A stretch of 64,000 nt of DNA from Bacteroidota bacterium. GTDB taxonomy: Bacteria > Bacteroidota > Ignavibacteria > OLB7. The notes under the pieces were generated by a model. That model ran no database searches and was not told where the DNA came from. It saw only the letters and a list, made by a program, of their open reading frames with translations. Positions 10,430 to 63,589 of the stretch are shown piece by piece (the first letter of the stretch is position 1; each line of letters starts with the position of its first letter). The translations under genes and the position numbers were made by a program. The stretch covers positions 26,971 through 90,970 of the forward strand of contig JAFDZV010000036.1 in the NCBI GenBank assembly GCA_018266795.1. Reading direction: 5' to 3'.

Positions 10430-10485
10430 GGGAGGGCGGGCGCCGCCGCCCGGGGCTGCTGCAGGGGAGAATGCAGACGATTGCA

Positions 10486-10519: not shown

Positions 10520-10684
10520 CCAGAGGCGGGGCCGGCGCTGCAACCGTTGTGGTTGCCGCCGGCAGCGCATCGCTACCGTGAAGAACGCACCATCACCAAC
10601 AGCTTCCATCAACGACCGGCCATCTCCGGCTTCCCCGCGAGATCGCTGCGCTCGGCGGTGAAGGCTTCAAGCGCCGAGACCAGC

Positions 10685-13600: not shown

Positions 13601-14260
13601 TTCAACATGGATTCGCCATCCGACAGGACATTTACCTTCGACAGCAGAACGATCGCTCTGGATACGGCCCCCGCGGTAACTATTCCGCGCGGCCAGAGCC
13701 TCGCAAAGAAATTCCCGATGCGGCTGCAGACGTTCATGTCATCGGACGCGGGGAAATTGCCCAAGGACCTGGGATACGTGGCTGTGGGTACGCAGTTGGC
13801 AGCGCAGCCGGTTGCGGCGCCATGGTATGGTCTCGACTATACGCTGAACCTCGGCACACTTGGTGAGTTTGCCGCCAATGCCGGGATTACCGTGCAGCTT
13901 GCCGTTACGTGGAGCCCTGGAGGGCCTTCGCAGCCACGCGCCCAGGTGTGGTTGAAGTTCCCGGGTGTCGGCGGCATCGGGAATGATCTGTTCAGCCTGG
14001 AGGGGGTCGTGAAATTTTCTGCGAGCTCGTACAGCCTGAAGGCCTTCACTGACGACGACGATATCGGATACCTGCTGACGCTGAACAGTATGGCGCTCCG
14101 CATTCTCGGCGTTGGAATTCCGTTCGGAGGCGGGCCGAATATCTACGTCTTCGGTCCGCCCAAGAGCCCGGCCCTGCTGAGCCCTACGGCAACGCCGAGC
14201 GACGATGCCCTGGGCTGGTTTGCCGTGTATCCGAAGCCTGCACCTCCGGGCGGCGGCTGA
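10685..14260 (+). CDS. Large hypothetical protein (1,191 aa) with an acidic N-terminal stretch and several Cys clusters.
   Basis: The long ORF has non-shadow composition. The likely start is MAYFNRHPDS, because the upstream in-frame part is an Arg/Pro-rich shadow. It contains the acidic run DDEEGEDPDEDEGEEDYEDEY and Cys-rich segments (ECGGFCYYL, CGDPL, FMCGLSG, NECFDGD, PHCDAF). No recognised catalytic motif. Confidence 0.65.
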   Translation: MAYFNRHPDSALYTSSQGYGGGYVAFYLYGDEFPETLTIPDTWETRVGYYLFLKEPPPENGMTTFVAAVNGALSGSEPCHTSFVWYTYNGADGSLVEIKTVSTNAVPVDDEEGEDPDEDEGEEDYEDEYTVLVTETALFNFGGYKLPIGVNMRVVYERDGGNDVTGFIFEYPEDPQPRYPAEAVVGPPDPQRNLHLTFNGDGRGCFEGIGFISDYSDDEETGWYVGLRYVLAVGCGLVPQYYPVFDFGDELRPLLEMRWDPTNHLDRNRTYLAFTGESIALVEDPPDSGVFRLEVPDSPEILPTFFRTVTGERIAFIPVTEGEGRSKLLFETRDTAPIECGGFCYYLVPAGEFELLLLDECGDPLTLASQKAEMPARFMCGLSGIESVGFMPRNECFDGDRILFVPHCDAFVPAFPINGNGGGLPDLDALRLIVEGECTAWVGFIGPNGEAREFVYYAQPEDAPLYTRPGVIAGSAPLPLMEPVAALFESVCSQTCFPVAPPAGAYPSVDAPNRPTFLSALEHQIIGPWRRDVIRRTAATAPDIMEPATSKPSGTGATPQGLIADVAVDSWTSLLLAQNQRTSTVLRFWYPDETLKAAFQTNQLFLVASLASHFTIPNPQQPTDRRFESRVNMADWKFDLKLSGNQFQRLDNPAADDFHDLNNTLIFKFSPGSISSRLRDPRSWTNPGDFNRTNDGLLDLLAQRLSAYVAYARTLASSNDPKVRARYAPFIEVIDDDEWTGIIGVNISIDMQLLPSQLSALSAGVDQNFFVAHHIVVETSYVKFSEQGQGLMPAECSLFGLVDYKRRQPAVPQGDGGNTAPAADFDFSVSDFLAVFRNGLLKEFSCAADLKINRLFGDNITGLTGNDGATNNGIRLIGQYDALSNTPSYVFTLEGGGQFQLQSAILEWVEIRKAQFSVREEAVPNRGKDMYCAFVFWGVMKFRSMGLTGDAGNLDIFSYDALAFEGMALRMKFNMDSPSDRTFTFDSRTIALDTAPAVTIPRGQSLAKKFPMRLQTFMSSDAGKLPKDLGYVAVGTQLAAQPVAAPWYGLDYTLNLGTLGEFAANAGITVQLAVTWSPGGPSQPRAQVWLKFPGVGGIGNDLFSLEGVVKFSASSYSLKAFTDDDDIGYLLTLNSMALRILGVGIPFGGGPNIYVFGPPKSPALLSPTATPSDDALGWFAVYPKPAPPGGG

Positions 14261-14371: not shown

Positions 14372-15637
14372 ATGCGCAGAATCAATGCGGCGGTATATCT
14401 GCTGCTGTTAACCATAGCGGTCGCAGCGCACGCTGCTCCAATGCAGACCTTGAAGATATACCACATCGGTGTGGGGCAGGGAGATTGCACATTCATCATC
14501 GCGAAAAAGGAACAGTCCAGGAAAGCACCAATCGTTGTCAGTGCGTTGATCGATGTTGGTTCCGGGCCGATCGTGCGAGCGGGGCGCGATCCAGCGTTGC
14601 TTTGGGCTGCCCTCCTGCAGATTATGGGCGAGAATTCAGTGCCGACGATCAATTATCTGATTCTCTCGCACCTGGATGAAGATCACATGGGGGCAGCGGA
14701 GGGATTGCTGTACGTTCTCGAGCGTCCCAATTTCAAGAAATATGCCAAGGGAATGATTGTGGTGGACAGAGGATGGCTGGACCCATCGACGAAGCCGACG
14801 GGGACAATCTATACCGGATTCGAGGGGCGTTTCGGAACCGGAAAGCCGTGGAGGCGGAAGAAGATTGATGTGAAGGAGAATTTGTTCGATGGCTACTTCG
14901 ACAACATGAAAATGTGGTGCGTTGCCGCCAACGGAGTGTCGCTGCAACCGAGAAATGGTGATCCGACAAAATGGAACAGGAGAGTGCTTGTACCGTCTGG
15001 TTCCCTGAATGAGAACGATCGCTGTTACGGTTTTCTGATCGAGTTCGATGGCTTCCGGTACTTCACGGCCGGCGATATGACCGGGTACGACGTCGACAGC
15101 CAGCACAATATCGAGCTTGGGTTCTCCGATTTTCTTACCCAGTGCATGCAGCGTGCGCAGCCCTCGGATGGGAACTGCCATGTCTGCTGCCTGAAGGTAA
15201 ATCACCACGGCAGTATCAACAGCACCAACCCGGATTTCGTGACCGCCACAAAGCCGAGGCTTGCGGTATTCTCGTCGGGTCTTCAGATGTTCAGCAACGG
15301 GCGACTACCACAGCAGGCCGTTGCAACACGGCTTCGGACAAATAACGCAGCGTGCAGTTTCTTCTACACCTACTGTCCCACGAATATTGCCGATCCGTAC
15401 GACGGTACGGTTCAGGACAACGATCCACTTTTCTTTACCGATCAACTGGATCGATGGCAGGATATCGTTGTCTCTGTTTCCCGCCCGAGTGCAAATCTCG
15501 TGGCAAATCGATTATACGGCGATGATATCACGATGAAGGTACAGGCCTGCTATCGTGATCGGTCCACGTTTGCCCGCACATCCAATCTGCGTGATCTGCC
15601 GGACGTTGTCTGCAGCAAGAAACACCCTGCACCGTAA
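14372..15637 (+). CDS. Secreted stand-alone ComEC/Rec2-type metallo-beta-lactamase-fold domain protein (putative nuclease or hydrolase), 421 aa.
   Basis: SD ggagag sits 6 nt upstream of the ATG. The signal peptide is MRRINAAVYLLLLTIAVAAHAAP. ComEC-type MBL motifs are present: KIYHIGVGQGDCTFII, ALIDVGSG, LILSHLDEDHMGAAEGL and KVNHHGSINSTNPDFVTATKPRLAVFSSG. Confidence 0.7.
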   Translation: MRRINAAVYLLLLTIAVAAHAAPMQTLKIYHIGVGQGDCTFIIAKKEQSRKAPIVVSALIDVGSGPIVRAGRDPALLWAALLQIMGENSVPTINYLILSHLDEDHMGAAEGLLYVLERPNFKKYAKGMIVVDRGWLDPSTKPTGTIYTGFEGRFGTGKPWRRKKIDVKENLFDGYFDNMKMWCVAANGVSLQPRNGDPTKWNRRVLVPSGSLNENDRCYGFLIEFDGFRYFTAGDMTGYDVDSQHNIELGFSDFLTQCMQRAQPSDGNCHVCCLKVNHHGSINSTNPDFVTATKPRLAVFSSGLQMFSNGRLPQQAVATRLRTNNAACSFFYTYCPTNIADPYDGTVQDNDPLFFTDQLDRWQDIVVSVSRPSANLVANRLYGDDITMKVQACYRDRSTFARTSNLRDLPDVVCSKKHPAP

Positions 15638-15653
15638 ACAGAGGAAGACTGCC

Positions 15654-18600
15654 ATGAGCCTTCAAACCTTCTACAATTCGCTTGGTGGAGACACCCCGCC
15701 GAATCCGATTGTCTTTGAGCTGGATGAGGATACTGTCGATCCGATCCTGATGCTGCTTACGCTCCTCGAGGTGGATCGGCTGGAGGTCGACATCGTTGGT
15801 GAGGGTGAGCATGATCCGCCATTCGGCATGGTATATACCGCGGACGACCAACCCATGACGATTCGTGGGAGCGCCGAGATGTACGGTGTTGCAACGACCG
15901 TGCTTCTTGTGTTCGTTCAGGACGCCGAGACCGATGCAATCCAGGGAACCCTTACAGCAGCGCTTGATATTACTTCGATTCAGGCGCTCTCGGATTCCGG
16001 TATCGCCGTCATCGCCAACATGGCGGACATCGCTGCGATGCCCGAAGCCGGAGTAGTGCTGGAGGTACTGGGCAATCTTTCGTTGACCACGTCGACGGCC
16101 GATCGCACGTTCGTTGTTCAGTCCGGGATCAAGGACGGAACCACCCGTGTGTTCCAGTCGCCCGCGGTTTCATTTACCGGATTGAACGTACGGGTTGATC
16201 GCGTCATTGGCGATCCGGCCTCGGAAGATGGGCCTGGTGCTCCTGTCACGACGTTGAGTGTAAAGGGGGCGTTCACGGTCTGCGGCCAGGCGCTGGACGT
16301 GACGGTGGATATTCCCGTTGGGGGAGTGGGCTCCACAATGTGGCGCTTCGCATTCACCAGTCCAACCGGATTCGGTCTCGATTCGCTTGTGGATCTGCTC
16401 AATGCATTCGGTGTCGGCGGGCAATTCGCTGCACTTCCCGATCGCATCAGATTGCTCTCCGCATTCCGGTTCATGGGCTTCGAGGTGATCGCCGATCCCT
16501 TCCCGTCGATCGCAAGCATCGAGGTCCTCTTTGCGATCACCGGCGACTGGAACGTCGTAGACACCGTTACGCTGCACAATATTACGTGCTCGCTGCTGGT
16601 CCAGAATCCGTTCAACGGACCATCTGCGCTTCTGAGGGCGAGCGGTGTGTTTACCGTTGGCGGCATTGATCTGGGGACGACACTGCTTATCCCGATAGGT
16701 GGTGGTAACTGGCTCGTGCGGTGTACAACCGACAGCGACAGCATCAATCTGCTCACGATGTCGCAACTGCCGGGGCGCTTCGACCTGAGCTCGCTTCAGG
16801 CACCGATCGGCACACAACAGCAGCTCGATGTTGTTCTGAACGATCTTACGGTTGTCTTCAATCCCATTGCGCGCACAATTGGAGCGATCTCGATCGCAGT
16901 GCGATATGCGGCTACGTGGAATGCCCTTGTCTACAATGGCGAGACGGTACTGAGCGTAACCAATCCTCAGTTCGTGATCGCCATCGATTCACCTCTGTCG
17001 AATAATCGCCGCGTCACGGCAAGCATCTCAGGGTTCGTGGCCTTTTACGATCTGATCAATGCGAGTTTCGAGATGACCAGATCGGGAGGAAGGTGGGCGT
17101 TTGCCGCCGAGACCACCAAACCGATTCGTCTCCAGGCGATCTTCGACAAGTTTTTTCCAACGTATCCGGAGTGGCTGGACGCGATCAAGGGATTTTCAAT
17201 CACCCAGATCGTGTTCAATTATACGACGTCGGGCGGGAGCCAGCCCGGTGTCTTCAATCTGAGTGCCCGCATCGAGGCCAATTGGGATTATGCACTCGGC
17301 GGCCAGACCGGTTCCATTCAACTGACCTCCATCAGCGCATCGGTTGGATCGCAGCCCGATCCTGCTCAGCCTGCGCAGCGGATCTGGACGTTCGCCGTTG
17401 CCGGCACCGTGCGCCTGTACGACACGTTCAACCTGACAGGCTCGTTCCAGTATCGTACAGGCAATGGTCCCGGATCGGGTGCCGAGATCGCCGTCGAGTT
17501 CGATGGCGTGCGTGGTGTCTACAACTCCACCAACAAGCGCATCGACGTCTCACTCGGGAATCGCACCGTCGGCGATCTGGTAAATACGCTCAACCGATTG
17601 GTCAACGGTCCCGCCACGCCGGACTATCAGTTCGAGTCGCCATGGGATCTCGTTGCCGGCATCAGCCTGCAGGGGCTGGTATTCAGCTTCTACTTCGACG
17701 GCAACAGCCAGAAGCGCTGCGGTATCACCTATCGTTTCCCGACGCCCGTCGATCTCGGCTTCATGAAGATTGTCTCGGTCTCGGTGATTGTGACGACCAC
17801 CAAGAAGATTCGCTTCGAGGCCGACGTGATTCCGTTCACGGCAACAACGCCGTCGCCGTTCGGATGGAATCTCGATGATGCGAATGTCCCGAAGCCGCCG
17901 GGCCGCTCGGCACGCATCCTCGATCTCAAGTACCTCGGCATCGGCCAGCGGCTCGAGCTGATGTCGGCGAATGCCACCCGCTCCGTTGACGACGGGATCG
18001 CTGCGATGAAGACCGCGTTCGCGATCCCGTCGGCAACCAGCCATCCGCTTACAGGCATGCAGGCCGGCCTGCGCTACAACCCGCAGATGAACTGGCTTGT
18101 GGGGGCGGACTTCCAGTTGTTCGGGGCGTTGGCGATCGGCTTCATCTTCAACGACAGCAACATAGCCGGTGTGCGCGTTGGCGTGGATGGCGATCGCTTC
18201 CGCTATCTCGGCGGCCTGAAGTTCGAGATCCTCTACAAGAAGGTAACCGAGAGCATCGGCGTGTACCAGATGGAGATCCGCGTGCCGGATTCCATCCGCC
18301 AGATCGAGCTGGGGCAGGTTTCGATCACGCTTCCGATCATCGCCTTCGAACTCTACACGAACGGCAATTTCAAGGTGGACTTCGGATTTCCGAAGGACAA
18401 TGACTTCTCCCGTTCGTTCATGATTCAGGTGTTTCCATTCCTGGGAGCCGGTGGTTTCTACTTTGCGCTGCTGGAGGGGGCAACATCGCCGCGTCTGCCG
18501 GCCAACTACAATCCGAACACCGGTGTGTTCCGTCCCGTGTTGTCGTTCGGCATCGGGCTCAGTCTGGGAGTGGGCAAGAGCATCAACCGCGGCATCTTCT

Positions 18601-21600
18601 CGGCGCAGCTCAGCATCACATTCGAGGGAATTCTGGAAGGGGTGATCGGCTTCTTCAACCCGACGAGCGGGAGCGGAACCGAGATCTACTACTGGCTTCA
18701 GGGCACGCTCGGCGTGGTTGGCCGGATCCAGGGAAGCGTGAGCTTCGCCGTCATTTCCGCAAGCGTCTCGCTGGTTGTGTACGCGCGTATCGGGGCCACA
18801 TTCGAATCATACCAACCACTCGTGCTCTTCTTCGAGGCCGGTGTGGATGTGAACCTTACGGTGCGCATCGGCGTTGGCTGGCTGAGCACCGATGTCAGTT
18901 GCTCCTTCTCCACCAGCATCCGCGAGTCGTTCACGATCCCGGTGCGCGGCAATGGAACGGCGCCGTGGGTTGGCGGCGGCCAGCATGCGTTGGGCCACGG
19001 CGCCGGGCCGCACGGTATGATCGGATCGAGTGCGGTGGCGCCGAAGGAAATGGGGGTTCTCCGCTGGAGAACGATCGACATGGCCGGCACGGGCGACGAA
19101 GTTCTTCTGGAGTTCCGTCCGATGTATACCGTGGCGGAAGGGCCGAACGGCCAGAAGTCCAACTACGTGGCAATGCTGTTTCTGCGCAGTGCATCGCAAT
19201 CGGAACGCGAGAACGACCATCGGACTGTCAACGAGATTCAGGCAACGGACTTTGAGGCGCTTGCAACCGGCATGTTGGTGTGGGCGATCAATGCATCGGT
19301 GAATGCCAACAACCAGACTGCCGTCAATGCGGGCAACATCGAGACCGAACTCCTTAACAAGGACGTCCGGATTGATCACCTGCAGGAAGTGTTCGATTCT
19401 CTGGCACGCCGGGCAGGAGCGGCTGCGAGTTTCGAGACGCAGCAACTGCTGGATTTCCTCCACCTGTATTTCACGATGGTGATCGTCCCATTGCAGCAGA
19501 ACCGGCATTCACCGAATGGTGGCAGCTCCGATGACCGGCCCACGCTGGCAGTGTTCCCAATGCCGCCGGACCTGGAACTGAAGGCGTTCTACGATGACGC
19601 GACCGTGGCCGACATCGACTTCGCCTCCTACAACATGGTACCGGACAGCTATTCCGGCGAGATCGCCAACCACTTCAAGGAAATCGCCATGCAGTTCCAG
19701 ACAGGGCTGGAAGCGAGCGTTGACGCGAATGAAATGCAGGCTGCGCCGGAGTATACGGGCGACGAAGAGTCCATGGCATCCTATGTCTTCGACGACTATT
19801 TCATGCTCCTTGCGCGTGGGGTGGTACATGCGGCCATGGATCTGCTGAAGAATTATTCGATTAAATCTGCCGGGGAGACTCTTGCCGCCCTGGCGACCAC
19901 CTATGGGGTTTCCCCGGGTGAGGTGGGCGTTGCAAATGCGGATCTGGCGATCACCGCACCGGCCACACTGCAGCTTGGCGGTGTGGCGGTAACCACGACG
20001 GCTACCGATACGCTCGCGGCATTGGCCTCGGACAGGGGGTTCCCGAACGACAATGGTTTCCTGGAGAGCCTCGGTCGCCTGAATGCGCTCACACCCGGAC
20101 TCGTGGCAACGGACACGGCGATCACGATCGGCGACGACTCAATCGATGTTGCAGAAAACGAGACGTTGTACTCCATGGCGACGAGGCTCCATGCTTCACC
20201 GGGTGCGGTTGCCGTCACGATTGCATCGCGGCAGGTGCTCAATGCCGATACGAGGCTGCTTCTTCCAACGGTTCCAACCACGTATCTCACCGTTGGGAGC
20301 GAGCCCAATCTGCGCTGGATCGCGTCCAACTACGTTGCAACGCCGGACTTCCAGTTCGAGACGGACTTCGCGCTCGCGAACGCGTTCGTTCCGGGGATCT
20401 TCGTTCCGGGAACCATCTTCACGATGGCGACCGGAGATGCGTACCAATCCATCGCGTCCGACTCGCTTGCAACAATTGCGGCGGCGGTGGGCTTCACCGT
20501 GGAATCGGTGGCGGGAGCCAGCAACGAGCTTTCCGGCATCATCGCTCCCGGAGTTCGCCTTACCATCCCTCCGGTGTCGGTTGCGCTGGAGGGTGCGCCA
20601 ACGTTGCGCCAGGTGCAGACAACCTATGGAGCCGGCATCGCGGCAGTGGCTGCGGCCAACGCCGCAACCCTTGTGCTGGGTGCGGCGGGCGGTTGCATTG
20701 AGCTGCCGAATGTGAAGAAGATCAAGATCGGAACGCTGAGGAAGGAAATGCTGCAGCGCGATCTGTTGATCGATCTTGGCGGCACGGTCTCGCGATTCAT
20801 GGTGCCGGGCCTGCGGCTGCCGCTCCCGACGCAGCAGCAGAATCCCGAGCCCGGCCTGTGGCCGAACTGCGAACCGGATGGATTGTATCGCCTTACCGGC
20901 CAGCAATTCGAGTTGGACAACCCGCTCGGCGGGCAGAACGGACCCGATCTGGATGTTATGCTGGTTGGCGGAGCCAACGCAGGCTGGTATTCGATGCGCG
21001 GGGACGCGGAGAACTACGAGAACCCCGAGAACGACGAGGTGTATGAAAATCCTGTGCGTGTCACGCTCGAGTGGGCTGACCTCGACAAGCTCGATCAGCT
21101 TGCCGCAGAGCAATTGCTGGTTGACGCGTCGCCCTACCGGAAGATCCCGATGTCGCAGACGCAGTTGAAGCGCTTCCCGCTTGGGCGTCCCGTGCAGATT
21201 CAGATGTCCGGTGCGTTTGCCTATGCCGTTGGAACGGCTCCCAACGGCGTGTTGCCGACCATCCTCAACTTCTCCGAGGGAATGCGCCGCGTGCTGGCGG
21301 TGGCCAGGAATCCGGAGCAGCGTTTCGATCTCGCGCTGGAGCGGCCGGACGGATCCGCTGCGGCGCTGAACGTCTACTCCTGGGCTACGGCAATCACCGT
21401 GAAGGTGCGTCGCGTTCGCCTGCCCGATGGTTCCATTGCTGCAATGACCTACGAGCTGGACGGTGCCGACGCCGAGGGGACGCTGACGCTGGAGAAGATC
21501 GTTGCCAGGGGAGGAACGTCCGGCTTCGGGTTCATTCAGGATATACATCTTCTCTTTGCCGGCCAGGGAGTTGGAGCGTTGCAGACCGACGGGCCGAATG

Positions 21601-24600
21601 CAATCAGTGCCTTCATCCTGCAAACCAATCTCTCCACGCTCACCAACCCGCAGGGGTCGAAGAGCATGGTGGCGGCGAAGGACGTACCGGCTGCGGTCGC
21701 AAATGATTTCAAGGACAACCGTGCCGAGATTCTGCGAGTACTGTGGGAGGGAAGTATCGTTCGCTCCGGCGGATACTATCTCTACTATCGGTGCGGTGGT
21801 GCATCGCGAGGGCTGCCGGACAGCGCGTTCAAGGATGACGGTACGGCGGACATCACGCTGTTGATCACCTATGGCTACGGGGCCGGCAATTATGCCTCCA
21901 GCGGGCTGCCGTCGTTCGTGAACCGGGTGGTAGTGGGGGCGGATGTTACCGTGGCTTCCGTGTTCGCAGTCTCGCACGAGCAGTCGATATCGGTAGCGGT
22001 GAACGGCACCACGACGCTCAGCCAGCTGATGGCCTCGTATCACACAAACCTTGCGGATCTGGCCGTGGACCTTGGCGGACAGGGGCTGAGCGTGGAGTCG
22101 ATTCCCGTTCCCGGTGCAGTGTACCAGGTGGCGCACGGCGGCGAGACGCTGGGCGCGGTTGCCAACCGATTCCATCTTGGCATCGATGCCATCAAAAGCG
22201 CGAACACGGATCTCGATGCGGGCCTCACCGCCGACAGCGAGTTGACCGAGTACCTGACCCTCGTGATCCCGCCGTTCACGCATCCGGTAGCTGCCGGGCA
22301 GAACCTTGCAGGCATTGCCGGCACATACAATGTGCCATTGACCGATCTCGTTGCTCCGCTTGCCGGCTCTGCAATCTTCGCTGCCGGACCGAATGTGAAC
22401 ATCCGCAGTCGCCTGGTAACGAAGTCGCCCACGGTGCCGCCGGGACACACCGGATTCCAGCTGTTCCGCGTGCCTCAGGAGACTCCGACAGTGCATGATG
22501 AGCCCACAGCCGCACAACAGTTGGAATCGCTCTACAGCCTGCTTGCATACTGGCTGGTGCAGAACCAGTGGTGCGATGGAAGCATGGAGGGACTGCCGCG
22601 CGGACCGGGGGAGGAACTGGCGGAGTTCACGGATCTTCCGGACGTGGAGGATCGGTGGAAGTACGAACAGGTACTGCCTGCGTACCGGTTTGTTCACAGC
22701 GCACTCCCGGCCGCCAACCCATATCGAGGGGTGGGTACGCTCGTGGAGATCGGCGTGGATTGGCGCGACGTGTTCGGCAATCTCCTGAACTACGTCTTCG
22801 AGGTTGATGGATGTTGGGGATCGAACGTTCTGCCGATCCGCCTGGGCTACACCGACGAAGTAATCGGAATCGGGCGTTGGCCGTCTGTGCGGTCATCCTA
22901 CAGCATGGGCTTCGATGCGAACTCGAATCCGACGAACGACATCGTACTGGAGTTCGATGTTGCGCGCTACCTGGTTACCCCGGAGGGTGAGCAGGCAAGT
23001 CTGGGGGATGTGTACAATATTGCCGGCGCCGACTACGAAGCATACACGCGCATCGCAAATCAGCTTGCCTGTGCCGATGTCACAGCCTGGGGAAGCACCA
23101 CGCTGGGCGGCCCGTCGCAGCCGCTCAGTATTGCCGCAATCCGTGCCTGGGTGGGAAGCATCGTAAGCTTCCTGGATCAGCTGTTCGCGGTGCTTATCGA
23201 CCCGGATGCGCCGCAGCCGCAGATCCCGGACGATCTCACGCTTCCGATCCCTGCCTCGCTTACAAACAACGAGGCGATCTTCCCGTTGATCGTTCGTTTC
23301 GGCATCGAGCGTACCGGGCGTATCGACGATGCATTCCTCGACATGCCCGCCGTGCGCGAGGCTACCGAGGACATCGAACCCGCCGGGCCGATCAAGGACT
23401 TCGCCGCGAACTTCGAGTGCGTCTATGGGGGGGCGAAGCTGGCCGCGGGCCTCTCGCGTCTGGAGGATACGGAGACCGATTCACGCAATCGGCTCTGGGT
23501 GGTGAAGCTGGGGCAGCTCAACGGCAATAATCGCGACCAGGGCCCATCGAATCCGAACAAACGGTTCCAGTATGCCGTCGACGATCAGCAGCAGGTGTTC
23601 TTCGCACCGATTCCGCTTGCTACGTCACCCATCGGATCGGAAGATCTGAACGTCTACAACTACGTTTCCGGACAGGGGCTGGCCGATGCAGTCACCAGGA
23701 AAACCTACAAGGGGGTTGATCTCGATGCCTGGGCCCGGACGTTCCTGAATGCGGTGGACACGATTCTGCTTCCTCAGTATGCAACTCCGGCACATCTGCT
23801 CGATCTTGGAAGCGCTGCTCCGGCGGGCTCGCGCGCGCTCGAGAAGATTATCGCTGCGAAGCGAATGATTGCCGGCGCCATCACGGGAATGGTGCAGGAG
23901 ATTGGAGACACAGGACGGGGAAACCTGGGCGAGGCCAGCGAGTTCTTCAGTCAGCGACTGCTGGTTCGATTGTCGGCAGCGTATGAAACCGATGCGATCG
24001 TTCAGCTGGGAGTAAACGTGGACTCGCCGTATGCCGATGCGGATACCACGTACGTACCGAAGCTGTATGGGCAGACAGTGGGACGGCGGCCGGGAACGGA
24101 GGAGTCGAAGCCGGAGTTCACGCTCTCCACGGCACGTGTTCCACTGGCACGCGAGAGTCAGTACCTGACATTCCTTTTCAGTGCGGAGACGGCGCTGCCC
24201 GAACAGATGTTCGAGGTGGATGTAGAATTCAACGTCAGCGCATTGGAATACCAGATTGCCGACGTGCCGGGCATTACCGATTATCGCGCGTCATCGTGGC
24301 TCACATTCATCATTCCACCCGACTCGCCAACCGTGCGGGCTGCTGTTCCGGTACCGATCCGGAAGTTCCCGCCCACGCCGACGTTGATCGAGCAGGAATT
24401 GATCACCACGGTTGACGCCACCGATGATGAGGAGGAATACAATGCGCTTACGCTTGCCGAGACGCGTGAATGGCAGTATGCATATACATACGAGCGGGTG
24501 CAGGGGACGCACGATGTAATCTTCACCTCCCCTCGATTCAATGTGGCCAACAGCGAACTGCCTCACGGCATCGGTGCGGAGGATCCCGATCTGTTCCAGG

Positions 24601-25769
24601 CGCTGGCGATGTTCGATCACGCCTGGGATGCCATCCAGCAGGATCTGTTCGATCCGTTGGTCAAGATCAGGCAGGGCGTTGCCGGTGCCGACGACGGCAA
24701 GGCCGATGCCGCTCTCACAGCGTTTGCCGCAATTGCATCCAAGGTTGCATGCGCATGGGGACGCTGGTTGTGCGATCGCGATTTCTACCGGCCGTCGTAC
24801 GGGACGGAAGATCCATACCTGTACGTGGTAAGCGAGGATGATCGCGACATCCTAGTCGAGGCGCAGGTGGTGCGGCGGTTCACGATAGCCGTCAGAGTCT
24901 GCCGCGGCCAGGCGGACGTTCCTCTACCGCGTATAGATGTCGATGGTTGGGAAACCCACCCGGTGGACAACGTATTGCCGGGATGGCGGATATTCTGGTA
25001 TTCAGCAGTAGGAGAGAACGGAACGGAGATCCTGGACAAGGATACTGCTGCGGAGGACCGCCAGCGAACGGTGGTATTCGAAACACTGGATATCCTGAAC
25101 AAGCAGAATGCATGGGGAGGGGTGTACACAACCCGGAACGAGAACATCTTCAACGATGCCGCCTGTAATCCGACTGCTTCCATTCATACGAATCGGGAGT
25201 TCATCTATCGTACTCCGATGGTTCGCTTCGGAAATCTGCTGACCCCACTCATCGAATATGACGGGACGATCGATGTCGGGAGTCTGAGTCCCGCGGAGCC
25301 GAGCCCGAAGGGAATCGGGAGCCACATCGGCACGTTGTTCACGAAGTTCTTCGAAGGGATTCAGAATCCGGCGCCGAACGAGACCCGAAGCATTCGCGTG
25401 GATTGCAGGTATGAGTATCGTCTGGGGAATCCCTATGGGATCGTGAGTCCGATGATCGTTACGCTGCCGATTGCTATGTCGCCGCCGTTCGATTTCCGGA
25501 TACATGCGGACGAGGACGCGACATGCCCGCAGCAGGCTGCCACTTTCACCTGTGCGCTTGCCGATGCGATCACCGCCTGGTACTACGCGCGGTTGCCCGA
25601 GCGGGATCAGGGGCGGTTCATTTTCGACATCGCAGTCTATTCAAGCCTGGGGAATACAGGCAAGCTGCCGATCTACCACGTGAAGTCCTTGCGGTTGAAT
25701 CTGAGCGACGTGAACGATCTGACCGAGGATGATTGCGACGACGACGGTGGCGACGGCACGGGAGGATGA
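15654..25769 (+). CDS. Giant protein, paralog B (3,371 aa), with at least 7 tandem LysM-like modules and the same conserved core as paralog A; no N-terminal signal peptide.
   Basis: The ATG is 16 nt after the stop of the MBL gene, with gaggaag just upstream. Core segment LKFEILYKKVTESIGVYQMEIRVPD...FPFLGAGGFYFALLEGAT is at nt ~18220-18960. LysM-like modules lie at ~19860-20720 and ~22000-22420 (e.g. VYQVAHGGETLGAVANRFHLGIDAIKSAN, HPVAAGQNLAGIAGTYNV, SAGETLAALATTYGVSPGEV). The C-terminal block NAWGGVYTTRNENIF...RTPMVRFGNLLTPLIEYD is shared. The tail is acidic/Gly (EDDCDDDGGDGTGG). Confidence 0.85.
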   Translation: MSLQTFYNSLGGDTPPNPIVFELDEDTVDPILMLLTLLEVDRLEVDIVGEGEHDPPFGMVYTADDQPMTIRGSAEMYGVATTVLLVFVQDAETDAIQGTLTAALDITSIQALSDSGIAVIANMADIAAMPEAGVVLEVLGNLSLTTSTADRTFVVQSGIKDGTTRVFQSPAVSFTGLNVRVDRVIGDPASEDGPGAPVTTLSVKGAFTVCGQALDVTVDIPVGGVGSTMWRFAFTSPTGFGLDSLVDLLNAFGVGGQFAALPDRIRLLSAFRFMGFEVIADPFPSIASIEVLFAITGDWNVVDTVTLHNITCSLLVQNPFNGPSALLRASGVFTVGGIDLGTTLLIPIGGGNWLVRCTTDSDSINLLTMSQLPGRFDLSSLQAPIGTQQQLDVVLNDLTVVFNPIARTIGAISIAVRYAATWNALVYNGETVLSVTNPQFVIAIDSPLSNNRRVTASISGFVAFYDLINASFEMTRSGGRWAFAAETTKPIRLQAIFDKFFPTYPEWLDAIKGFSITQIVFNYTTSGGSQPGVFNLSARIEANWDYALGGQTGSIQLTSISASVGSQPDPAQPAQRIWTFAVAGTVRLYDTFNLTGSFQYRTGNGPGSGAEIAVEFDGVRGVYNSTNKRIDVSLGNRTVGDLVNTLNRLVNGPATPDYQFESPWDLVAGISLQGLVFSFYFDGNSQKRCGITYRFPTPVDLGFMKIVSVSVIVTTTKKIRFEADVIPFTATTPSPFGWNLDDANVPKPPGRSARILDLKYLGIGQRLELMSANATRSVDDGIAAMKTAFAIPSATSHPLTGMQAGLRYNPQMNWLVGADFQLFGALAIGFIFNDSNIAGVRVGVDGDRFRYLGGLKFEILYKKVTESIGVYQMEIRVPDSIRQIELGQVSITLPIIAFELYTNGNFKVDFGFPKDNDFSRSFMIQVFPFLGAGGFYFALLEGATSPRLPANYNPNTGVFRPVLSFGIGLSLGVGKSINRGIFSAQLSITFEGILEGVIGFFNPTSGSGTEIYYWLQGTLGVVGRIQGSVSFAVISASVSLVVYARIGATFESYQPLVLFFEAGVDVNLTVRIGVGWLSTDVSCSFSTSIRESFTIPVRGNGTAPWVGGGQHALGHGAGPHGMIGSSAVAPKEMGVLRWRTIDMAGTGDEVLLEFRPMYTVAEGPNGQKSNYVAMLFLRSASQSERENDHRTVNEIQATDFEALATGMLVWAINASVNANNQTAVNAGNIETELLNKDVRIDHLQEVFDSLARRAGAAASFETQQLLDFLHLYFTMVIVPLQQNRHSPNGGSSDDRPTLAVFPMPPDLELKAFYDDATVADIDFASYNMVPDSYSGEIANHFKEIAMQFQTGLEASVDANEMQAAPEYTGDEESMASYVFDDYFMLLARGVVHAAMDLLKNYSIKSAGETLAALATTYGVSPGEVGVANADLAITAPATLQLGGVAVTTTATDTLAALASDRGFPNDNGFLESLGRLNALTPGLVATDTAITIGDDSIDVAENETLYSMATRLHASPGAVAVTIASRQVLNADTRLLLPTVPTTYLTVGSEPNLRWIASNYVATPDFQFETDFALANAFVPGIFVPGTIFTMATGDAYQSIASDSLATIAAAVGFTVESVAGASNELSGIIAPGVRLTIPPVSVALEGAPTLRQVQTTYGAGIAAVAAANAATLVLGAAGGCIELPNVKKIKIGTLRKEMLQRDLLIDLGGTVSRFMVPGLRLPLPTQQQNPEPGLWPNCEPDGLYRLTGQQFELDNPLGGQNGPDLDVMLVGGANAGWYSMRGDAENYENPENDEVYENPVRVTLEWADLDKLDQLAAEQLLVDASPYRKIPMSQTQLKRFPLGRPVQIQMSGAFAYAVGTAPNGVLPTILNFSEGMRRVLAVARNPEQRFDLALERPDGSAAALNVYSWATAITVKVRRVRLPDGSIAAMTYELDGADAEGTLTLEKIVARGGTSGFGFIQDIHLLFAGQGVGALQTDGPNAISAFILQTNLSTLTNPQGSKSMVAAKDVPAAVANDFKDNRAEILRVLWEGSIVRSGGYYLYYRCGGASRGLPDSAFKDDGTADITLLITYGYGAGNYASSGLPSFVNRVVVGADVTVASVFAVSHEQSISVAVNGTTTLSQLMASYHTNLADLAVDLGGQGLSVESIPVPGAVYQVAHGGETLGAVANRFHLGIDAIKSANTDLDAGLTADSELTEYLTLVIPPFTHPVAAGQNLAGIAGTYNVPLTDLVAPLAGSAIFAAGPNVNIRSRLVTKSPTVPPGHTGFQLFRVPQETPTVHDEPTAAQQLESLYSLLAYWLVQNQWCDGSMEGLPRGPGEELAEFTDLPDVEDRWKYEQVLPAYRFVHSALPAANPYRGVGTLVEIGVDWRDVFGNLLNYVFEVDGCWGSNVLPIRLGYTDEVIGIGRWPSVRSSYSMGFDANSNPTNDIVLEFDVARYLVTPEGEQASLGDVYNIAGADYEAYTRIANQLACADVTAWGSTTLGGPSQPLSIAAIRAWVGSIVSFLDQLFAVLIDPDAPQPQIPDDLTLPIPASLTNNEAIFPLIVRFGIERTGRIDDAFLDMPAVREATEDIEPAGPIKDFAANFECVYGGAKLAAGLSRLEDTETDSRNRLWVVKLGQLNGNNRDQGPSNPNKRFQYAVDDQQQVFFAPIPLATSPIGSEDLNVYNYVSGQGLADAVTRKTYKGVDLDAWARTFLNAVDTILLPQYATPAHLLDLGSAAPAGSRALEKIIAAKRMIAGAITGMVQEIGDTGRGNLGEASEFFSQRLLVRLSAAYETDAIVQLGVNVDSPYADADTTYVPKLYGQTVGRRPGTEESKPEFTLSTARVPLARESQYLTFLFSAETALPEQMFEVDVEFNVSALEYQIADVPGITDYRASSWLTFIIPPDSPTVRAAVPVPIRKFPPTPTLIEQELITTVDATDDEEEYNALTLAETREWQYAYTYERVQGTHDVIFTSPRFNVANSELPHGIGAEDPDLFQALAMFDHAWDAIQQDLFDPLVKIRQGVAGADDGKADAALTAFAAIASKVACAWGRWLCDRDFYRPSYGTEDPYLYVVSEDDRDILVEAQVVRRFTIAVRVCRGQADVPLPRIDVDGWETHPVDNVLPGWRIFWYSAVGENGTEILDKDTAAEDRQRTVVFETLDILNKQNAWGGVYTTRNENIFNDAACNPTASIHTNREFIYRTPMVRFGNLLTPLIEYDGTIDVGSLSPAEPSPKGIGSHIGTLFTKFFEGIQNPAPNETRSIRVDCRYEYRLGNPYGIVSPMIVTLPIAMSPPFDFRIHADEDATCPQQAATFTCALADAITAWYYARLPERDQGRFIFDIAVYSSLGNTGKLPIYHVKSLRLNLSDVNDLTEDDCDDDGGDGTGG

Positions 25770-25885: not shown

Positions 25886-26938
25886 TCACCGCTCCCGAAA
25901 CTCCTGCGGTGCATTCGGCACCAGTGCGGGATCGGCGAGGTCCAACTCCAGCAACGTCTTTCCGTTGTTCGCCTCCACGCCGACGGTGAATGCGCCGAGT
26001 GATTGGAACGTGTACGCGAGCGTGCGATCCGGGCCAAGCTCCGCCGTCACCACATCCGGTTTGAACGTCGGATGCAGATGAATGGCAACCTGGTTCGACA
26101 TCACCTGCGCTTCGTCCGATGCGGTGACCTCCAGCGTGACGCGGAAGAAGGTCCTGCTGGAATCCACCGGCGTTACCGTTGCGCCGATCCTCCAGCCGTC
26201 GCGATCGGCGAGGCCGCCGAATCTCCCCTTTGCGGGATCGGACGCCATCTCCTCGTTATCCGCGTGGCCGGCGACTCCGCGAATGCCCGGAGCCGGCCCC
26301 TTGAACGTCTGCGCTGCTGCGGGCCGTGCTGCCGCGGCTGCCGTTCGCCAGATGACGCTCGCAAACTTCACCTGATTCTCCTTCGCCTGTTCGATGTCCG
26401 CCTGCACAGTCTCGCCAACCTTCTGTGCCTCCACGGATGCAGCGGTAGCCGACTGCGATATCTCCATCGCCGCCTCCGATCGCAGCTGAGCCGCGGCGGA
26501 TTTCCGCATCGCCCGCTCCGAATTTCGTTTGGCGTCGGCCGCCAGTGCGATCACCTGCCTGGAGACCGAGCCGATGAAGGCGCGCGAGGAGATGGCCGCC
26601 GCAAGACAGAAGCCGCCGTAGATGAAGAACTGCCATCCGGAGAGCTGCGCCGGGTTCGATGTGTCCACCAGTTTGCTGTCCGCGATCTTCAGGAAGAGCG
26701 GCACCAGAAACGCGGCGCCGACACCACGTACCACCGGCTGCCACACCGATGTGTCGGTAGGCACCGGTTGAGCCGGGACCGGCGTGGAGGCCGGATCGGC
26801 GGCCGATGCTCCGGTTGTGTCCGGTTCCGGCCGGCGCAGCGCGGAACGTCCATCCGGAAAGCCGAAGTAGCTGACCAGCCCTCCGAATATCCCGGCGAGA
26901 ACCGTGAGCGTGATGAGAATCGGGATCTGGGTTTCCAT
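25886..26938 (-). CDS. Membrane-anchored hypothetical protein (350 aa) with 2 predicted TM helices, an Ala/Gln-rich coiled-coil-like linker and a C-terminal globular domain.
   Basis: The N-terminus METQIPILITLTVLAGIFGGLVSYFGF and the segment WQFFIYGGFCLAAAISSRAF are hydrophobic. The AAAQLRSEAAMEISQSATAASVEAQKVGETVQADIEQAKENQVKF region is coiled-coil-like. The C-terminal domain GRFGGLADRDGWRIGATVTPVDSSRTFFRVTLEVTASDEAQVMSNQVAIHLHPTF has no match I can name. Confidence 0.6.
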   Translation of the reverse strand: METQIPILITLTVLAGIFGGLVSYFGFPDGRSALRRPEPDTTGASAADPASTPVPAQPVPTDTSVWQPVVRGVGAAFLVPLFLKIADSKLVDTSNPAQLSGWQFFIYGGFCLAAAISSRAFIGSVSRQVIALAADAKRNSERAMRKSAAAQLRSEAAMEISQSATAASVEAQKVGETVQADIEQAKENQVKFASVIWRTAAAAARPAAAQTFKGPAPGIRGVAGHADNEEMASDPAKGRFGGLADRDGWRIGATVTPVDSSRTFFRVTLEVTASDEAQVMSNQVAIHLHPTFKPDVVTAELGPDRTLAYTFQSLGAFTVGVEANNGKTLLELDLADPALVPNAPQEFRER

Positions 26939-26975
26939 GGCAGCGCATCAATAGTGTGAATCGAGGAGGGAGTTG

Positions 26976-27169
26976 GTCAGTAGTCAGTGGTCAGTAGTCA
27001 GTAGGACAATGACTCCCTGAACAACTGACGACTACTGAGAAACGCATTGATATCTAAAGCCGCGAACCTCAGATGCTCAGGATTGAGTCCTGTTCCAGCG
27101 CCGACACGAGCGTTAGATGTTCAGGAGCTTCTCAATAACAACTGACGACTAACAACTGACGACTGACGA
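26976..27169. repeat. Intergenic palindromic repeat element built from GTCAGTNG / CNACTGAC octamers (locus A).
   Basis: ggtcagtagtcagtggtcagtagtcagtagg (26976-27005) faces caactgacgactactgag (27021-27038). A second right-arm copy caactgacgactaacaactgacgactgacgag lies at 27138-27169. The same family occurs at 63315-63478. Confidence 0.7.
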
Positions 27170-27201
27170 GCAGCGATAGCCGTGCTCTTCGCGGCCGGCC
27201 G

Positions 27202-32323: not shown

Positions 32324-33025
32324 CGTTCTGTTGTGGTCTTGTGGTGGTTGGATATCGTATCCGCGCGATGCTTCCCGTGGGCCTGGGGGGCAGGCGTGCA
32401 TATGGTGATGCCGCGAAGGCTCGAACATCGGATGGCGGCACGGCCTTGCGGCTGCGCAGACACTCCGTTGTTGCCAGAAGCCGGTAATCGGAGCAGCCGA
32501 TGCCGAGTTCGTGCTTGTCGTAACGGAAAAAGCGAGCGTCGGTGGTTTCAGGCTTCGCGCCGCATCAGTGCGGCGCTTGAAGCAACGGCAAACATACGAT
32601 GCAGGCGCGAGTTATGCCAGAGGAGTGTCGGTGGTTGGTCGTCAGCTGATCGGTGTTCCCGGTGGCGGGATCGCTTGGGCCCCGTCTTGCCGGGGGATTG
32701 ATCTGGAAGGGACGTGAGCCCGGGGCGACAGGCACCTCCAACGTTCAGTGATCGATCAGATCCCGACAACGCCGCGCAGTTCCATTCACGTGTGGTGCAG
32801 CCGACACCGTACCATGGCTACGTAACCTCGCGCTGCCAACGGCTCGCCCCAAGCACAAAGCCCCAAGTCCCAAGCTCCAAGTCCCAGTTTGCACGAGATG
32901 GTTAACTTGAAACGTCATTGGCAGGTGCGCGGCGTCAGCACGTAGCCCGCATCCATGCCTTCGGCAACAGCGCGGACAATCCGCCTGCAATCCCTCCGGC
33001 AGCAACTCTTCCAGCTTCCATCCGC

Positions 33026-61601: not shown

Positions 61602-63310
61602 TCAGCCTCATGAACAGAGCCGTTCGCACTCATGCGGCCGCGATACTTCTGGTGTGCGGTCTGCTTGCGGGCCGTACCGCCGCCCGCGCGCAGAGCGAGC
61701 TGCTTCCGGTGGATCATCCGGCCACCGCGACGCTGGTGCGCCTGTACGAGTTCGGAGGCATTCCGGAGTTCCCGCGCGAGCACCTTCCGATATCGCGGGC
61801 ATATGCTCTGCGGCTGCTTGTGCAGGCCGGCAGGGATACCACTCTGCCGGATCTGTTGCGCAGACAGGCCGCATACTATAGCGACGAACTGGTGGCGGAG
61901 ACCGGGTTCGCTCCAACCGCAGCCTTCATCCCAACCGCCGACACATCCACGCTGATCTACGATCACATCGGCGGTGACCAGCCGGTGGTGGTTCTGGAGT
62001 ATCGAGACCCGGAGTTGCACACGCACGTGGCGCTGGAGCCGGTGCTGGATGGAGACCTGCGGGTGGATCCCGATGCTCACGCAACCGCGCTGATTGCCCG
62101 GGGCGGCCTGGAGCTGCGCGGAACACTTCTCGGCCATATCGGCTTTTCCGGACGCGTCACCAACGGCTCGGTGGCCGGCGATTCCGCGATCGCAGCGCGC
62201 GACCCGCACATCAATCGCGACGGCTCCTTCGGCATCACCGGCTTCGGCCGCGACGTCAGCTCCGGTGACGGGCACATCCGTGCGGACTTCGACAACGTTG
62301 CCATCGAGCTCGGGCACGAACGGGTGCAGCTTGGCGGGGGGCTGAGCGAGAGCCTGCTGCTGGGCTCCGATCTTCCGGTCAACTTCGATTACCTTCGCTT
62401 CTCGGCTCGCTTCGGACGTGTAGCGTTCACACATATCCATGCCTCGCTGCTCGGTGAGGCCACGGGCGATTCGCGCGGGCCGTACGCGGAGATACCGGCG
62501 AAGTACGTGGCCGCGCATCTCCTCAGCTTCGGTCCGTTTGCGGGCCTTCGATTCTCGATCGGCGAGTCCGTGATCTACCATGGGCGGCCGTTCGATCTGG
62601 GCTATATCAACCCGCTCGTCTTCATGAAGACGCAGGAGCAGTATCTGCTGGATCGCGACAACGCGAACCTCTATCTGGCGATGACCTGGGCTCCGATCAG
62701 AAGAGCGTTGCTGGAAGGGGAGATCCTGGTGGATGACCTGCGCTTCTCGCAGATCGGGAAGGGCTTCTGGAACAACAAGACGGCGTGGCGCGTGGCGCTC
62801 CGGACCACGGCCGTCGGTGTCGACTGGCTGGACGCCGCTGTCTCCTACACGCGGCTCGAGCCGTATGTGTTCACGCACTTCAACCCGCTCAACGACTACA
62901 CACATGCCGGCGCAATTCTCGGCGGCGGAGGGCTGCAGCCGAATTCCTGCCTCACCGAACTGACGTTGGGCGCCACCCCTGCGCCGTGGCTGCACGTGCA
63001 GGCTGCTGCCGGCTTCGGCGAGCACGGCGCCAACACGTACGGCATCGATCCGGTGACCGGGCGCGATACTGTTCTGGTGAACGTTGGCGGAGATGTGCAC
63101 CAGACGCATCGCGCGATTCTGGACAACGATCACGTGACGTTTCTGGACGGCATTCTGGAGAAGACCGTGCACCTGCGGCTGGAGGCGGAGTACGAACTGC
63201 GGCGCAACGTCTATCTGCGCATCGCGGCCCTTCGCGATCAGACAACGGTGAACGGCAGCACCTCTCCGGTGACGGAGATCCGGTGCGGCCTGCACGTCGG
63301 GGCGCACTAG
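61598..63310 (+). CDS. Predicted outer-membrane beta-barrel protein, possibly a Wzi-like capsule-assembly protein (570 aa).
   Basis: Its ATG overlaps the Wza-like stop (ATGA). Signal peptide AAAILLVCGLLAGRTAARAQ. Beta-strand-rich, with aromatic girdle residues. The locus context is a polysaccharide export cluster. Confidence 0.4.
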   Translation: MISLMNRAVRTHAAAILLVCGLLAGRTAARAQSELLPVDHPATATLVRLYEFGGIPEFPREHLPISRAYALRLLVQAGRDTTLPDLLRRQAAYYSDELVAETGFAPTAAFIPTADTSTLIYDHIGGDQPVVVLEYRDPELHTHVALEPVLDGDLRVDPDAHATALIARGGLELRGTLLGHIGFSGRVTNGSVAGDSAIAARDPHINRDGSFGITGFGRDVSSGDGHIRADFDNVAIELGHERVQLGGGLSESLLLGSDLPVNFDYLRFSARFGRVAFTHIHASLLGEATGDSRGPYAEIPAKYVAAHLLSFGPFAGLRFSIGESVIYHGRPFDLGYINPLVFMKTQEQYLLDRDNANLYLAMTWAPIRRALLEGEILVDDLRFSQIGKGFWNNKTAWRVALRTTAVGVDWLDAAVSYTRLEPYVFTHFNPLNDYTHAGAILGGGGLQPNSCLTELTLGATPAPWLHVQAAAGFGEHGANTYGIDPVTGRDTVLVNVGGDVHQTHRAILDNDHVTFLDGILEKTVHLRLEAEYELRRNVYLRIAALRDQTTVNGSTSPVTEIRCGLHVGAH

Positions 63311-63314
63311 TCGA

Positions 63315-63478
63315 GTGGTCAGTAGTCAGTGGTCGGTAGTCAGTAGCTCGTTGTTGTCTTCGACTGGCAACTGACCACTAACGACTAACGACTGACATTC
63401 CGAAGTCAGTGGTTGGTAGTCAGTAGCTCGTTGTTGTCTTCGACTGACAACTGACCACTAACGACTGACGACTGACAA
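63315..63478. repeat. Two tandem ~75-bp palindromic GTCAGT/ACTGAC repeat units (locus B).
   Basis: The unit agtcagtggt(c/t)ggtagtcagtagctcgttgttgtcttcgactg(g/a)caactgaccactaacgact(a/g)acgactgac is repeated twice at >95% identity. It is the same family as 26976-27169. Confidence 0.75.
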
Positions 63479-63589
63479 CCTGCACTCCGAATTGCACTGA
63501 GAGGAAGTCCATGCAGATGTGTCGAGGAGGTATGCGTAGGGCGGGCGCCTTCGGCGCAGGCAAATCATATGCGAACCATGAGTTCAACA

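Follow-up and report, generated by a model that had tools for sequence, protein, structure and literature searches.

Hairpin-forming convergent heptanucleotide repeats in two gene gaps of a Kapabacteria-like Bacteroidota genome

Genes around the repeats

The window analysed here is the whole stretch of 64,000 nucleotides taken from contig JAFDZV010000036.1 (assembly GCA_018266795.1, positions 26,971 to 90,970 of the forward strand), and all coordinates are given relative to its first base. The source is a metagenome-assembled genome (MAG) that resembles Kapabacteria within the Bacteroidota, and the MnmA protein encoded in the window is 97% identical to a 'Candidatus Kapabacteria' MAG protein.

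Two gene gaps of the window, termed locus A and locus B, carry the repeats. On the minus strand, the gap that holds locus A extends from the stop codon of an acyltransferase gene (27202) to the ATG (26938) of a gene encoding a YLATT/pYEATS protein. Locus B has the stop codon of the gene for a conserved 570-aa protein on one side and, on the other, a Wzz/GNVR-type gene whose start is near 63590. Both loci are located 3' of the upstream gene's stop codon in co-directional gene pairs (B at the stop codon itself, A 33 nt beyond it), and the right arm of the repeats ends 38 nt (locus A) or ~110 nt (locus B) before the next start codon. The intergenic position that a first-pass annotation of this DNA had given for both loci, with A flanked by two minus-strand genes, was therefore confirmed. 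Its gene names at locus B fared less well: the 'Wzi-like' label of the upstream gene is unsupported, since the 570-aa protein has no Pfam domain, and the downstream gene named wzc is of the chain-length-determinant type (412-432 aa) and not a full Wzc, because the kinase domain is absent in relatives. Thirty ORFs of the window were scanned with Pfam, and neither a transposase nor a RAYT was found among them.

The YLATT/pYEATS gene (25886-26938, minus strand), which adjoins locus A downstream, encodes a protein 100% identical to NCBI entry MBS1913516.1 (JST22_16130). This protein is 71% identical to the copy of the closest relative, versus 93-97% for the products of neighbouring genes; YLATT and prokaryotic YEATS are domain families described from predicted biological-conflict systems. 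Elsewhere in the window, three very large plus-strand ORFs (9-8741, 10481-14260 and 15555-25769; 2910, 1259 and 3404 aa) have no Pfam domain except for a faint LysM match, and a collagen-triple-helix repeat protein (9053-10429) is flanked by them. The Gly-X-Y coding repeats of the latter account for the Tandem Repeats Finder (TRF) rows of period 9, 18 and 27.

Organisation of the repeats

Both loci are built on the 7-base word GTCAGTN, repeated head to tail and opposed by its own complement (Table 1). Because (GTCAGTN)n faces (NACTGAC)n, either DNA strand or its RNA can fold into a long imperfect hairpin, and the two gene gaps thus contain long hairpin-forming DNA. When GTCAGTNGTCAGT was searched with at most one mismatch, 16 matches were obtained in the window, all within loci A and B, where shuffled sequences lead one to expect 0.28. 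The palindromic repeats that the first-pass annotation had reported at these coordinates are therefore real and far above chance, and its more general claim, that palindromic, intergenic and hairpin-forming repeats occur at more than one site of the window, holds for both loci.

The repeat unit had been read as an octamer. TRF returned period-7 arrays at 26976-27004, 27141-27169, 63308-63346 and 63443-63479, so that the true period is 7 in all four arms; the octamers had been obtained because neighbouring units were allowed to share one overlapping base. The layout proposed for locus A was recovered: a four-unit left arm is followed by two right arms, of which the inner one is weak, and in the minimum-energy fold the outer right arm is the partner of the left arm. 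At locus B, the tandem pair was also recovered, but with a unit of 80 bp instead of ~75 bp and an identity of 94-95% instead of >95% (TRF: period 80, 1.9 copies, 95% matches; gap-free comparison: 79 nt at 94%). At locus B, the upstream 570-aa gene ends in TAG (63308-63310), and the phase of the array begins with this stop codon. The opposed arms form terminal inverted repeats, with a match over 31 nt that is 77-84% complementary.

Table 1. Repeat features of the window (coordinates relative to the first base of the window)
Feature	Coordinates	Composition or description	Basis
Locus A, left arm	26976..27004	GTCAGTA GTCAGTG GTCAGTA GTCAGTA then G	TRF period 7, 4.1 copies
Locus A, inner partial right arm	27020..27041	AACAACTGACGACTACTGAG; forms a 76-nt hairpin with part of the left arm	Direct/inverted repeats
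Locus A, internal non-repeat segment	27042..27135	~94 nt between inner and outer right arms	
Locus A, outer right arm	27136..27169	4 units ACTGACN / ACTAACN (ACTGACG ACTAACA ACTGACG ACTGACG)	TRF
Locus B, whole	63308-63479	80-bp hairpin unit, two in tandem; each with left arm, 16-18 nt loop and right arm	
Locus B, unit 1 left arm	63308..63346		TRF period 7, 5.4 copies
Locus B, unit 1 loop	63347..63362	CTCGTTGTTGTCTTCG	
Locus B, unit 1 right arm	63363..63398	ACTGGC A ACTGAC C ACTAAC G ACTAAC G ACTGAC	
Locus B, unit 2	63399..63479	Tandem copy of unit 1: left arm, identical loop, right arm	
Third locus, array	32627..32646	GTCGGT G GTTGGT C GTCAGC; left edge of 261-nt segment	Pattern GTYRGTNGTYRGTNGTYRGY
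Third locus, other heptamer array	32846..32886	(GCCCCAA)x6; right edge of 261-nt lineage-specific segment	TRF period 7, 5.9 copies

Loci A and B have their arms alone in common and share no core. Nothing similar to the ~94-nt interior of locus A was found in the first 120 fetched loci (L001-L120), and the 28-nt centre of the locus B unit had 0 exact matches in metagenome contigs, which gives no evidence for dispersal of the whole unit. The two units of locus B are a local tandem duplication, an outcome that the first-pass annotation had listed as one that would refute its reading, here in the case of this locus. An alignment of the A and B arms was considered as a sign of common descent but carries no weight, since the word itself makes any two GTCAGTN arrays identical at 86% or more of their positions.

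The seventh (spacer) base of the word is a plus-strand purine in nearly all units, in both arms of both loci, despite the opposite strands of the flanking genes. Cumulative GC skew climbs across the entire window, and the purine bias of the spacer base may therefore follow the replication strand.

A third, transition-degenerate array, GTCGGTGGTTGGTCGTCAGC, was overlooked in the first pass and was recovered with the transition-tolerant pattern GTYRGTNGTYRGTNGTYRGY (0 matches expected by chance). It forms one edge of a 261-nt segment (32627-32887), which lies in the divergent spacer between a glycosyltransferase gene and a rhodanese/MBL gene and carries an array of a different heptamer at its other edge (Table 1). 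Alignment with the relative L125 showed that the segment is lacking there; at the matching site, L125 has a shorter segment with three copies of the 14-mer CGAAGGCCAACGCA.

Predicted structures

Individual hairpins (76-91 nt) and whole loci (~190-226 nt) were folded and compared with shuffled sequences. The hairpins are significantly more stable than their shuffles (z ~ -3.2 to -3.7): -38.1 kcal/mol for unit 1 of locus B (z -3.65), -31.4 kcal/mol for unit 2 (z -3.6) and ~-28 kcal/mol for the inner 76-nt hairpin of locus A (z -3.2 on the minus strand, -3.55 on the plus strand). The entire loci reach -78.1 kcal/mol (locus A, 26960-27185, z -3.2) and -83 kcal/mol (locus B, z -5.0), while the ~94-nt interior of locus A has no structure beyond that of shuffles (z -0.93). 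Since the seventh base is mostly a plus-strand purine in both arms, the stems consist of 6-bp helices split by 1x1 mismatches.

The first-pass annotation had suggested that the elements might act as terminators. No T-tract follows the hairpins and a terminator scan returned no terminator-like site at either locus, so a canonical terminator role is unlikely. Rfam searches at the gathering threshold gave no match in the window, nor for the hairpins of 18 other loci; at a permissive E-value, both loci had only chance miRNA and snoRNA matches below threshold.

Orthologous sites in related genomes

Synteny around both loci is kept in three relatives. Both loci are absent from the orthologous sites of the closest available relative, with flanks conserved up to the arm ends. 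At locus B, where the upstream gene of this closest relative, L121, has 93% amino acid identity, homology runs to the stop codon and resumes just after the last ACTGAC, and 166 nt of hairpins in the window correspond to 133 unrelated nt in L121. At locus A, the spacer measures 263 nt in the window versus 35 nt in the closest relative. No GTCAGT array was present in ~86 kb of syntenic DNA of the three relatives (L121, L122, L123, L125), and the orthologous spacers in these genomes show no more structure than shuffled sequence does (z -0.3, -1.8 and -0.2). Loci A and B were therefore gained or completely remodelled in this lineage after its split from the closest sequenced relative, and the tandem duplication of locus B came after that event. 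No direct repeat that could represent a target-site duplication was found at any boundary aligned with the relatives, at either locus, or in the flanks of the arrays surveyed in other genomes.

The relatives carry other heptamer arrays at similar sites, directly after stop codons. In the Kapabacteria relative L123, (NNCGATT)x5 arrays occur in three blocks (16203-16344) with G-rich spacers between them; the blocks begin 1 nt past the stop codon of a Polysacc_synt gene. These are G+T-rich heptamer arrays after a stop codon with neither a complementary partner array nor a hairpin. Separately, the stretch of ~100 nt before the Wzz/GNVR start (63491-63590) is almost identical to that of L121, exceeding the adjacent coding sequence in conservation, and this conservation is lost in the more distant L122 and L123.

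Distribution in other bacteria and phages

The pattern GTCAGTNGTCAGTNGTYRGT was scanned against one genome per species, which returned at least 120 genome loci, and the same scan was applied to viral contigs; the figures below refer to the matches listed. According to a tally of record titles, the 120 genome matches listed fall into Acidobacteriota (41), Cyanobacteriota (20), Bacteroidota (15), Planctomycetota (14), Chloroflexota (11) and others (19). Nostoc, Dolichospermum, Microcoleus and Tolypothrix are among the genera with GTCAGT arrays. Period 7 is dominant in the window and the 120 listed array-bearing genome loci (418 of 1093 TRF rows), with many different words, and the arrays among the matches listed contain 3 to 38 units. 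The Acido-Lenti-1 RNA (RF01687) was matched above its gathering score in L070 (2852-2898, Pyrinomonadaceae) and L113 (6494-6538, Planctomycetota), a few kb from GTCAGT hairpins and with no overlap.

The order of adjacent arrays is invariant among the matches listed: a GTCAGT-type array is followed by an ACTGAC-type array in 49 cases and the reverse order was found in 0. This total includes six pairs between convergent genes (6:0) and three between divergent genes. Inverted pairs of other heptamers likewise tend to have the G+T-rich arm first (22:7). Many arrays have no strict complementary array (at most 1 mismatch per hexamer) within 400 nt; about half of these strictly unpaired arrays pair strongly with a degenerate partner on the expected side, and of 114 ACTGAC arrays lacking a strict partner, 50 have a strong partner on the upstream side and 6 on the downstream side. 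In the survey overall, the two arms are complementary at the seventh position in 69 of 121 cases. Mispairs of the sense-strand stems are divided equally between G.U and A.C (16:16, from 32 informative mispairs), so that nothing points to selection at the level of the RNA fold.

Hairpins between co-directional genes start close to the upstream stop codon (median distance 13 nt in bacterial and 8 nt in viral sequences). The same holds for unpaired arrays: 78% of bacterial and 60% of viral GTCAGT-type arrays on the sense strand lie within 12 nt after a stop codon, compared with 11-18% of ACTGAC arrays, and G+T-rich arrays of other words are similarly found near stop codons. Distances from ACTGAC arrays to ORF starts are biased as upper bounds, because the ORF definition extends starts back to stop codons that lie inside the array.

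Viral contigs with GTCAGT-type arrays contain up to 20 of them in 10 kb and are genuine tailed-phage fragments, as judged from terminase, portal, connector and tape-measure genes. The array-rich phage contigs have only terminase, portal, connector and tail genes in common, and no gene for a dedicated enzyme is shared among them. The IMG/VR contigs L136, L162 and L221 (tailed phages of ~60% G+C) have GTCAGT/ACTGAC hairpins in many intergenic gaps, where they span the whole distance from stop codon to start codon; in L221, the hairpin starts at the stop codon and ends immediately before the next ATG (CCACTGACC-ATG). In L162 the arms share a complex order of variant heptamers and the loops differ. 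A BLAST search of locus B against 50,697 deposited phage genomes returned one trivial match of 39 nt. Three further IMG/VR contigs (L151, L167 and L197, ~68% G+C) carry convergent GGGATTG...AATCCCT and GGGGATT...AATCCCC pairs, whose word is of the Xanthomonas/Nostoc type described by Rehm et al.

Origin and function

The GTCAGTN hairpins are a new example of the heptameric repeats already described from cyanobacteria, Xanthomonas and Beggiatoaceae. The reading that accounts best for loci A and B, to which we give a probability of roughly 55%, is that they are convergent pairs of dispersed heptanucleotide repeats of the STRR kind and belong neither to the REP/RAYT system nor to classical MITEs. 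According to this reading, arrays would be seeded by some copying mechanism and would then grow, shrink and decay in 7-nt steps, through slippage and point mutation. They would be tolerated in one orientation only: the G+T-rich arm, with its GTG/TTG, would adjoin a stop codon, and the A+C-rich arm, with a TGA in each reading frame, would be on the side of the next gene. If transcribed, the arrays would give stem-loops that lack a U-tract, and these might at most modestly impede 3' exonucleases, terminating ribosomes or read-through. Loci A and B would then be essentially neutral or selfish DNA that has no conserved function, and any function at these two loci is probably minor or absent.

The polarity of the arms can be related to the codons that they contain. 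G+T-rich arms carry GTG or TTG and ACTGAC arms carry TGA, in all frames, so that spurious translation is halted ahead of the next gene only if the arms stand in the order observed. We infer that avoidance of spurious translation explains the polarity in part; the order is equally strict between convergent genes (6:0), where avoidance of spurious starts does not apply. Other observations also sit uneasily with the repeat-slippage account. One word occupies three loci within 64 kb and turns up again in phages and in several phyla; slippage alone is insufficient for this, and a copying or sequence-specific process must exist. The edges between presence and absence at the arm ends are sharp and look like the insertion of a discrete element; the phage hairpins that fill stop-to-start gaps (L221, L136, L162) hint at a function in gene expression; and the comparison of G.U with A.C draws on just 32 informative mispairs.

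The strongest competitor, which we regard as improbable though deserving attention, is a true non-autonomous mobile element of the MITE or REPIN kind, in which the heptamer arrays would be the terminal inverted repeats, the loop would be free to vary and mobilisation in trans would come from a transposase or HUH enzyme whose gene lies on a phage or at another place in the genome. Such an element would fit the comparison with the closest relative, whose sites are empty or replaced and are delimited at the arm ends, and invariant polarity is what terminal inverted repeats would be expected to show. The tandem copies resemble REPIN clusters (PMC3116915), the L162 hairpins combine a shared order of variant heptamers with different loops, and the presence of arrays in phages offers a possible route between phyla. 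A target-site duplication is nevertheless lacking at both loci and in the survey flanks, A and B have different cores, arm length varies from 3 to 38 units with many arrays having no strict partner within 400 nt, and the 30 window ORFs scanned include no transposase. Moreover, many unrelated heptamers adopt a like architecture, which would need either many transposases or one that is indifferent to sequence.

Somewhat less probable still is a selected RNA element, i.e. an intercistronic stem-loop placed right after the stop codon, which would protect the upstream mRNA from 3' exonucleases, reduce read-through or cause terminating ribosomes to stall; in phages, translation might be coupled across the bridged stop and start codons with no Shine-Dalgarno sequence involved. 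Liang, Rudd and Deutscher are said to have reported in 2015 that E. coli REPs located within 15 nt of stop codons stall terminating ribosomes. The stability of the hairpins, their position next to stop codons in co-directional gene pairs, and the structural-gene operons of phages, where hairpins extend from the stop codon to 0-10 nt before the next ATG, are in keeping with an RNA element, as is the role in translation proposed for TAACTGA repeats before start codons (PMC4679880). It is opposed by the absence of both loci from the closest relative and the unstructured spacers of the relatives, by the lack of any G.U over A.C excess on the sense strand (16:16) and by the missing T-tract. Bridging of stop and start codons is inapplicable in the window, given the ~110 nt (B) and 38 nt (A) that separate the right arms from the next start.

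A broader proposition, which we consider doubtful, is that the GTCAGTN hairpins constitute a single class across phyla and phages, and that a dedicated mechanism, not slippage, lies behind their polarity and stop-codon position. Two candidates may be named: the stem may join the stop codon to the next start and so couple translation in the manner just described for phages, or an enzyme may add or mobilise G/T-rich 7-nt repeats at 3' ends, in which case head-to-head arrays would be like fused telomeres.

It is quite unlikely that the arrays serve as cooperative DNA sites for a protein that reads 7-bp steps and has a role in nucleoid structure, partition or regulation. A precedent is the ribbon-helix-helix omega repressor of pSM19035, whose heptads are bound when direct or converging and are left unbound when diverging. 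The strict 7-bp register, the non-palindromic word and the preference for convergent arrays would suit a protein of this sort. A binding partner of Nostoc heptamers has been postulated (bioRxiv 10.1101/2022.06.06.494920). The sites, however, follow stop codons within operons and are not at promoters, one architecture is shared by many unrelated heptamers, the arrays are absent from close relatives and a candidate protein was not found. Finally, an assembly artefact or chance palindrome is hardly credible: although the source is a MAG and tandem or inverted repeats misassemble easily, the 16 GTCAGTNGTCAGT matches far exceed the 0.28 expected, and isolates and complete long-read chromosomes (Nostoc, Dolichospermum, Hufsiella ginkgonis, OY969111.1, OZ252023.1) have a like architecture.

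Returning to dispersed heptanucleotide repeats as the preferred reading, the use of the loci as strain-typing markers, which had been put forward in the first-pass annotation, is plausible because STRR heptamers serve for fingerprinting in cyanobacteria (PMC5088731). For the source genome, the repeats represent fast-evolving and probably dispensable hairpins that are useful as strain markers. They are also a warning for assembly and annotation, because they lie directly against stop codons and contain both start and stop codons in every frame. The survey adds that the single word GTCAGTN is shared by tailed-phage contigs and no fewer than five phyla and that, among the matches listed, the arm order is invariant and the G+T-rich arm stands against stop codons. 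Arm order, stop-codon position and spread across phyla are concrete and testable constraints on any explanation of heptamer repeats.

Relation to known repeat families

Reports of dispersed heptamer repeats go back to 1990, and to our knowledge no account of their origin or function has found acceptance. As summarised in two studies, heptanucleotide repeats are reported to be the most abundant class of longer simple-sequence repeats in prokaryotes, and polymerase slippage in 7-nt steps is their proposed cause (PMC4679880, PMC4692102). The loci described here show what is characteristic of heptameric, STRR-like repeats: an exact period of 7, one word at three intergenic loci in 64 kb, variation of presence and copy number between relatives, and convergent pairs that lie nearer the upstream ORF.

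Rho-independent terminators resemble the loci in having a stable stem-loop downstream of a stop codon. The loci differ from them in the missing T-tract and in stems that are far longer (arms of 27-34 nt) and broken every 7 bp.

The loci behave like REP, REPIN or MITE elements in being extragenic, palindromic and present or absent between relatives, but these results do not establish membership in either group. REPINs have conserved ends, a variable spacer and tandem clusters, and are defined by RAYTs (PMC3116915, PMC3733652). Hairpin formation, strain variability, occurrence as single copies or tandem clusters, proximity to stop codons (often seen in REP, BIME and REPIN elements) and the combination of conserved ends with a variable spacer are also shared. 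Those families, however, have a fixed palindrome of 20-40 nt with a GTAG/CGTC tag, whereas variable-length arrays of 7 nt are found here, with no high-copy conserved 16-mer. The REP/BIME membership suggested at first is thus not upheld: there is no single REP palindrome of 20-40 nt, the scanned ORFs of the window include no RAYT, and the GT[AG]G motif is present only because A or G is used as the spacer base here (other genomes use T or C). The alternative suggestion, a MITE-like element, stands as regards terminal inverted repeats and presence/absence polymorphism; it fails as regards a target-site duplication and a conserved core and length, given that A and B share arms only and that arm copy number elsewhere ranges from 3 to 38.

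Among the heptamers proper, Mazel et al. reportedly described the cyanobacterial STRR words CCCCAGT, TTGGTCA and CAACAGT in 1990. GTCAGTN is none of these three canonical STRR1-3 words; it is one base away from a rotation of TTGGTCA. STRRs and the present repeats are both dispersed, intergenic, strain-variable tandem heptamers, but the host of the window is not a cyanobacterium. STRRs can extend RNA helices, and Vioque (1997) reportedly places them inside the RNase P RNA gene of heterocyst-forming cyanobacteria.

The TAACTGA direct repeats of marine Beggiatoaceae, Cyanobacteria and Bacteroidetes (MacGregor 2015, PMC4679880) differ from the word found here by one base (AACTGAT versus AACTGAC). 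They too are intergenic, have a patchy phylogeny and reach tens of copies, and single ACTGAC-type arrays in our survey likewise lie just 5' of ORF starts, at distances biased as upper bounds. They are, however, nearly all direct repeats that abut start codons, with one inverted case, whereas inverted pairs behind stop codons are found here and a gap separates the window loci from the next start.

The closest described kind is represented by the GGGAATC repeats of Xanthomonas and the GGGGAYT repeats of Nostoc (PMC4692102), which have the same architecture as loci A and B. Regulatory roles have been proposed for the Nostoc heptamers (preprint, bioRxiv 10.1101/2022.06.06.494920). In Xanthomonas, 89-93% of the GGGAATC heptamers are intergenic, chiefly between co-directional ORFs; 70-75 'convergent' plus/minus pairs are present per genome, the repeats are separated on average by 28 nt from the ORF upstream and by 160 nt from the one downstream, and conservation is lacking between two related species (Rehm et al. 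2015, PMC4692102). Compared with these repeats, the present ones use another word that has no G-quadruplex potential, occur in a Kapabacteria-like Bacteroidota host and, in the window, have arms that are mismatched at the seventh base. The two kinds agree in the period of 7, the intergenic position between co-directional genes, the convergent arrays on opposite strands that give stem-loops, the placement nearer the upstream ORF, and a length and presence that vary between close relatives.
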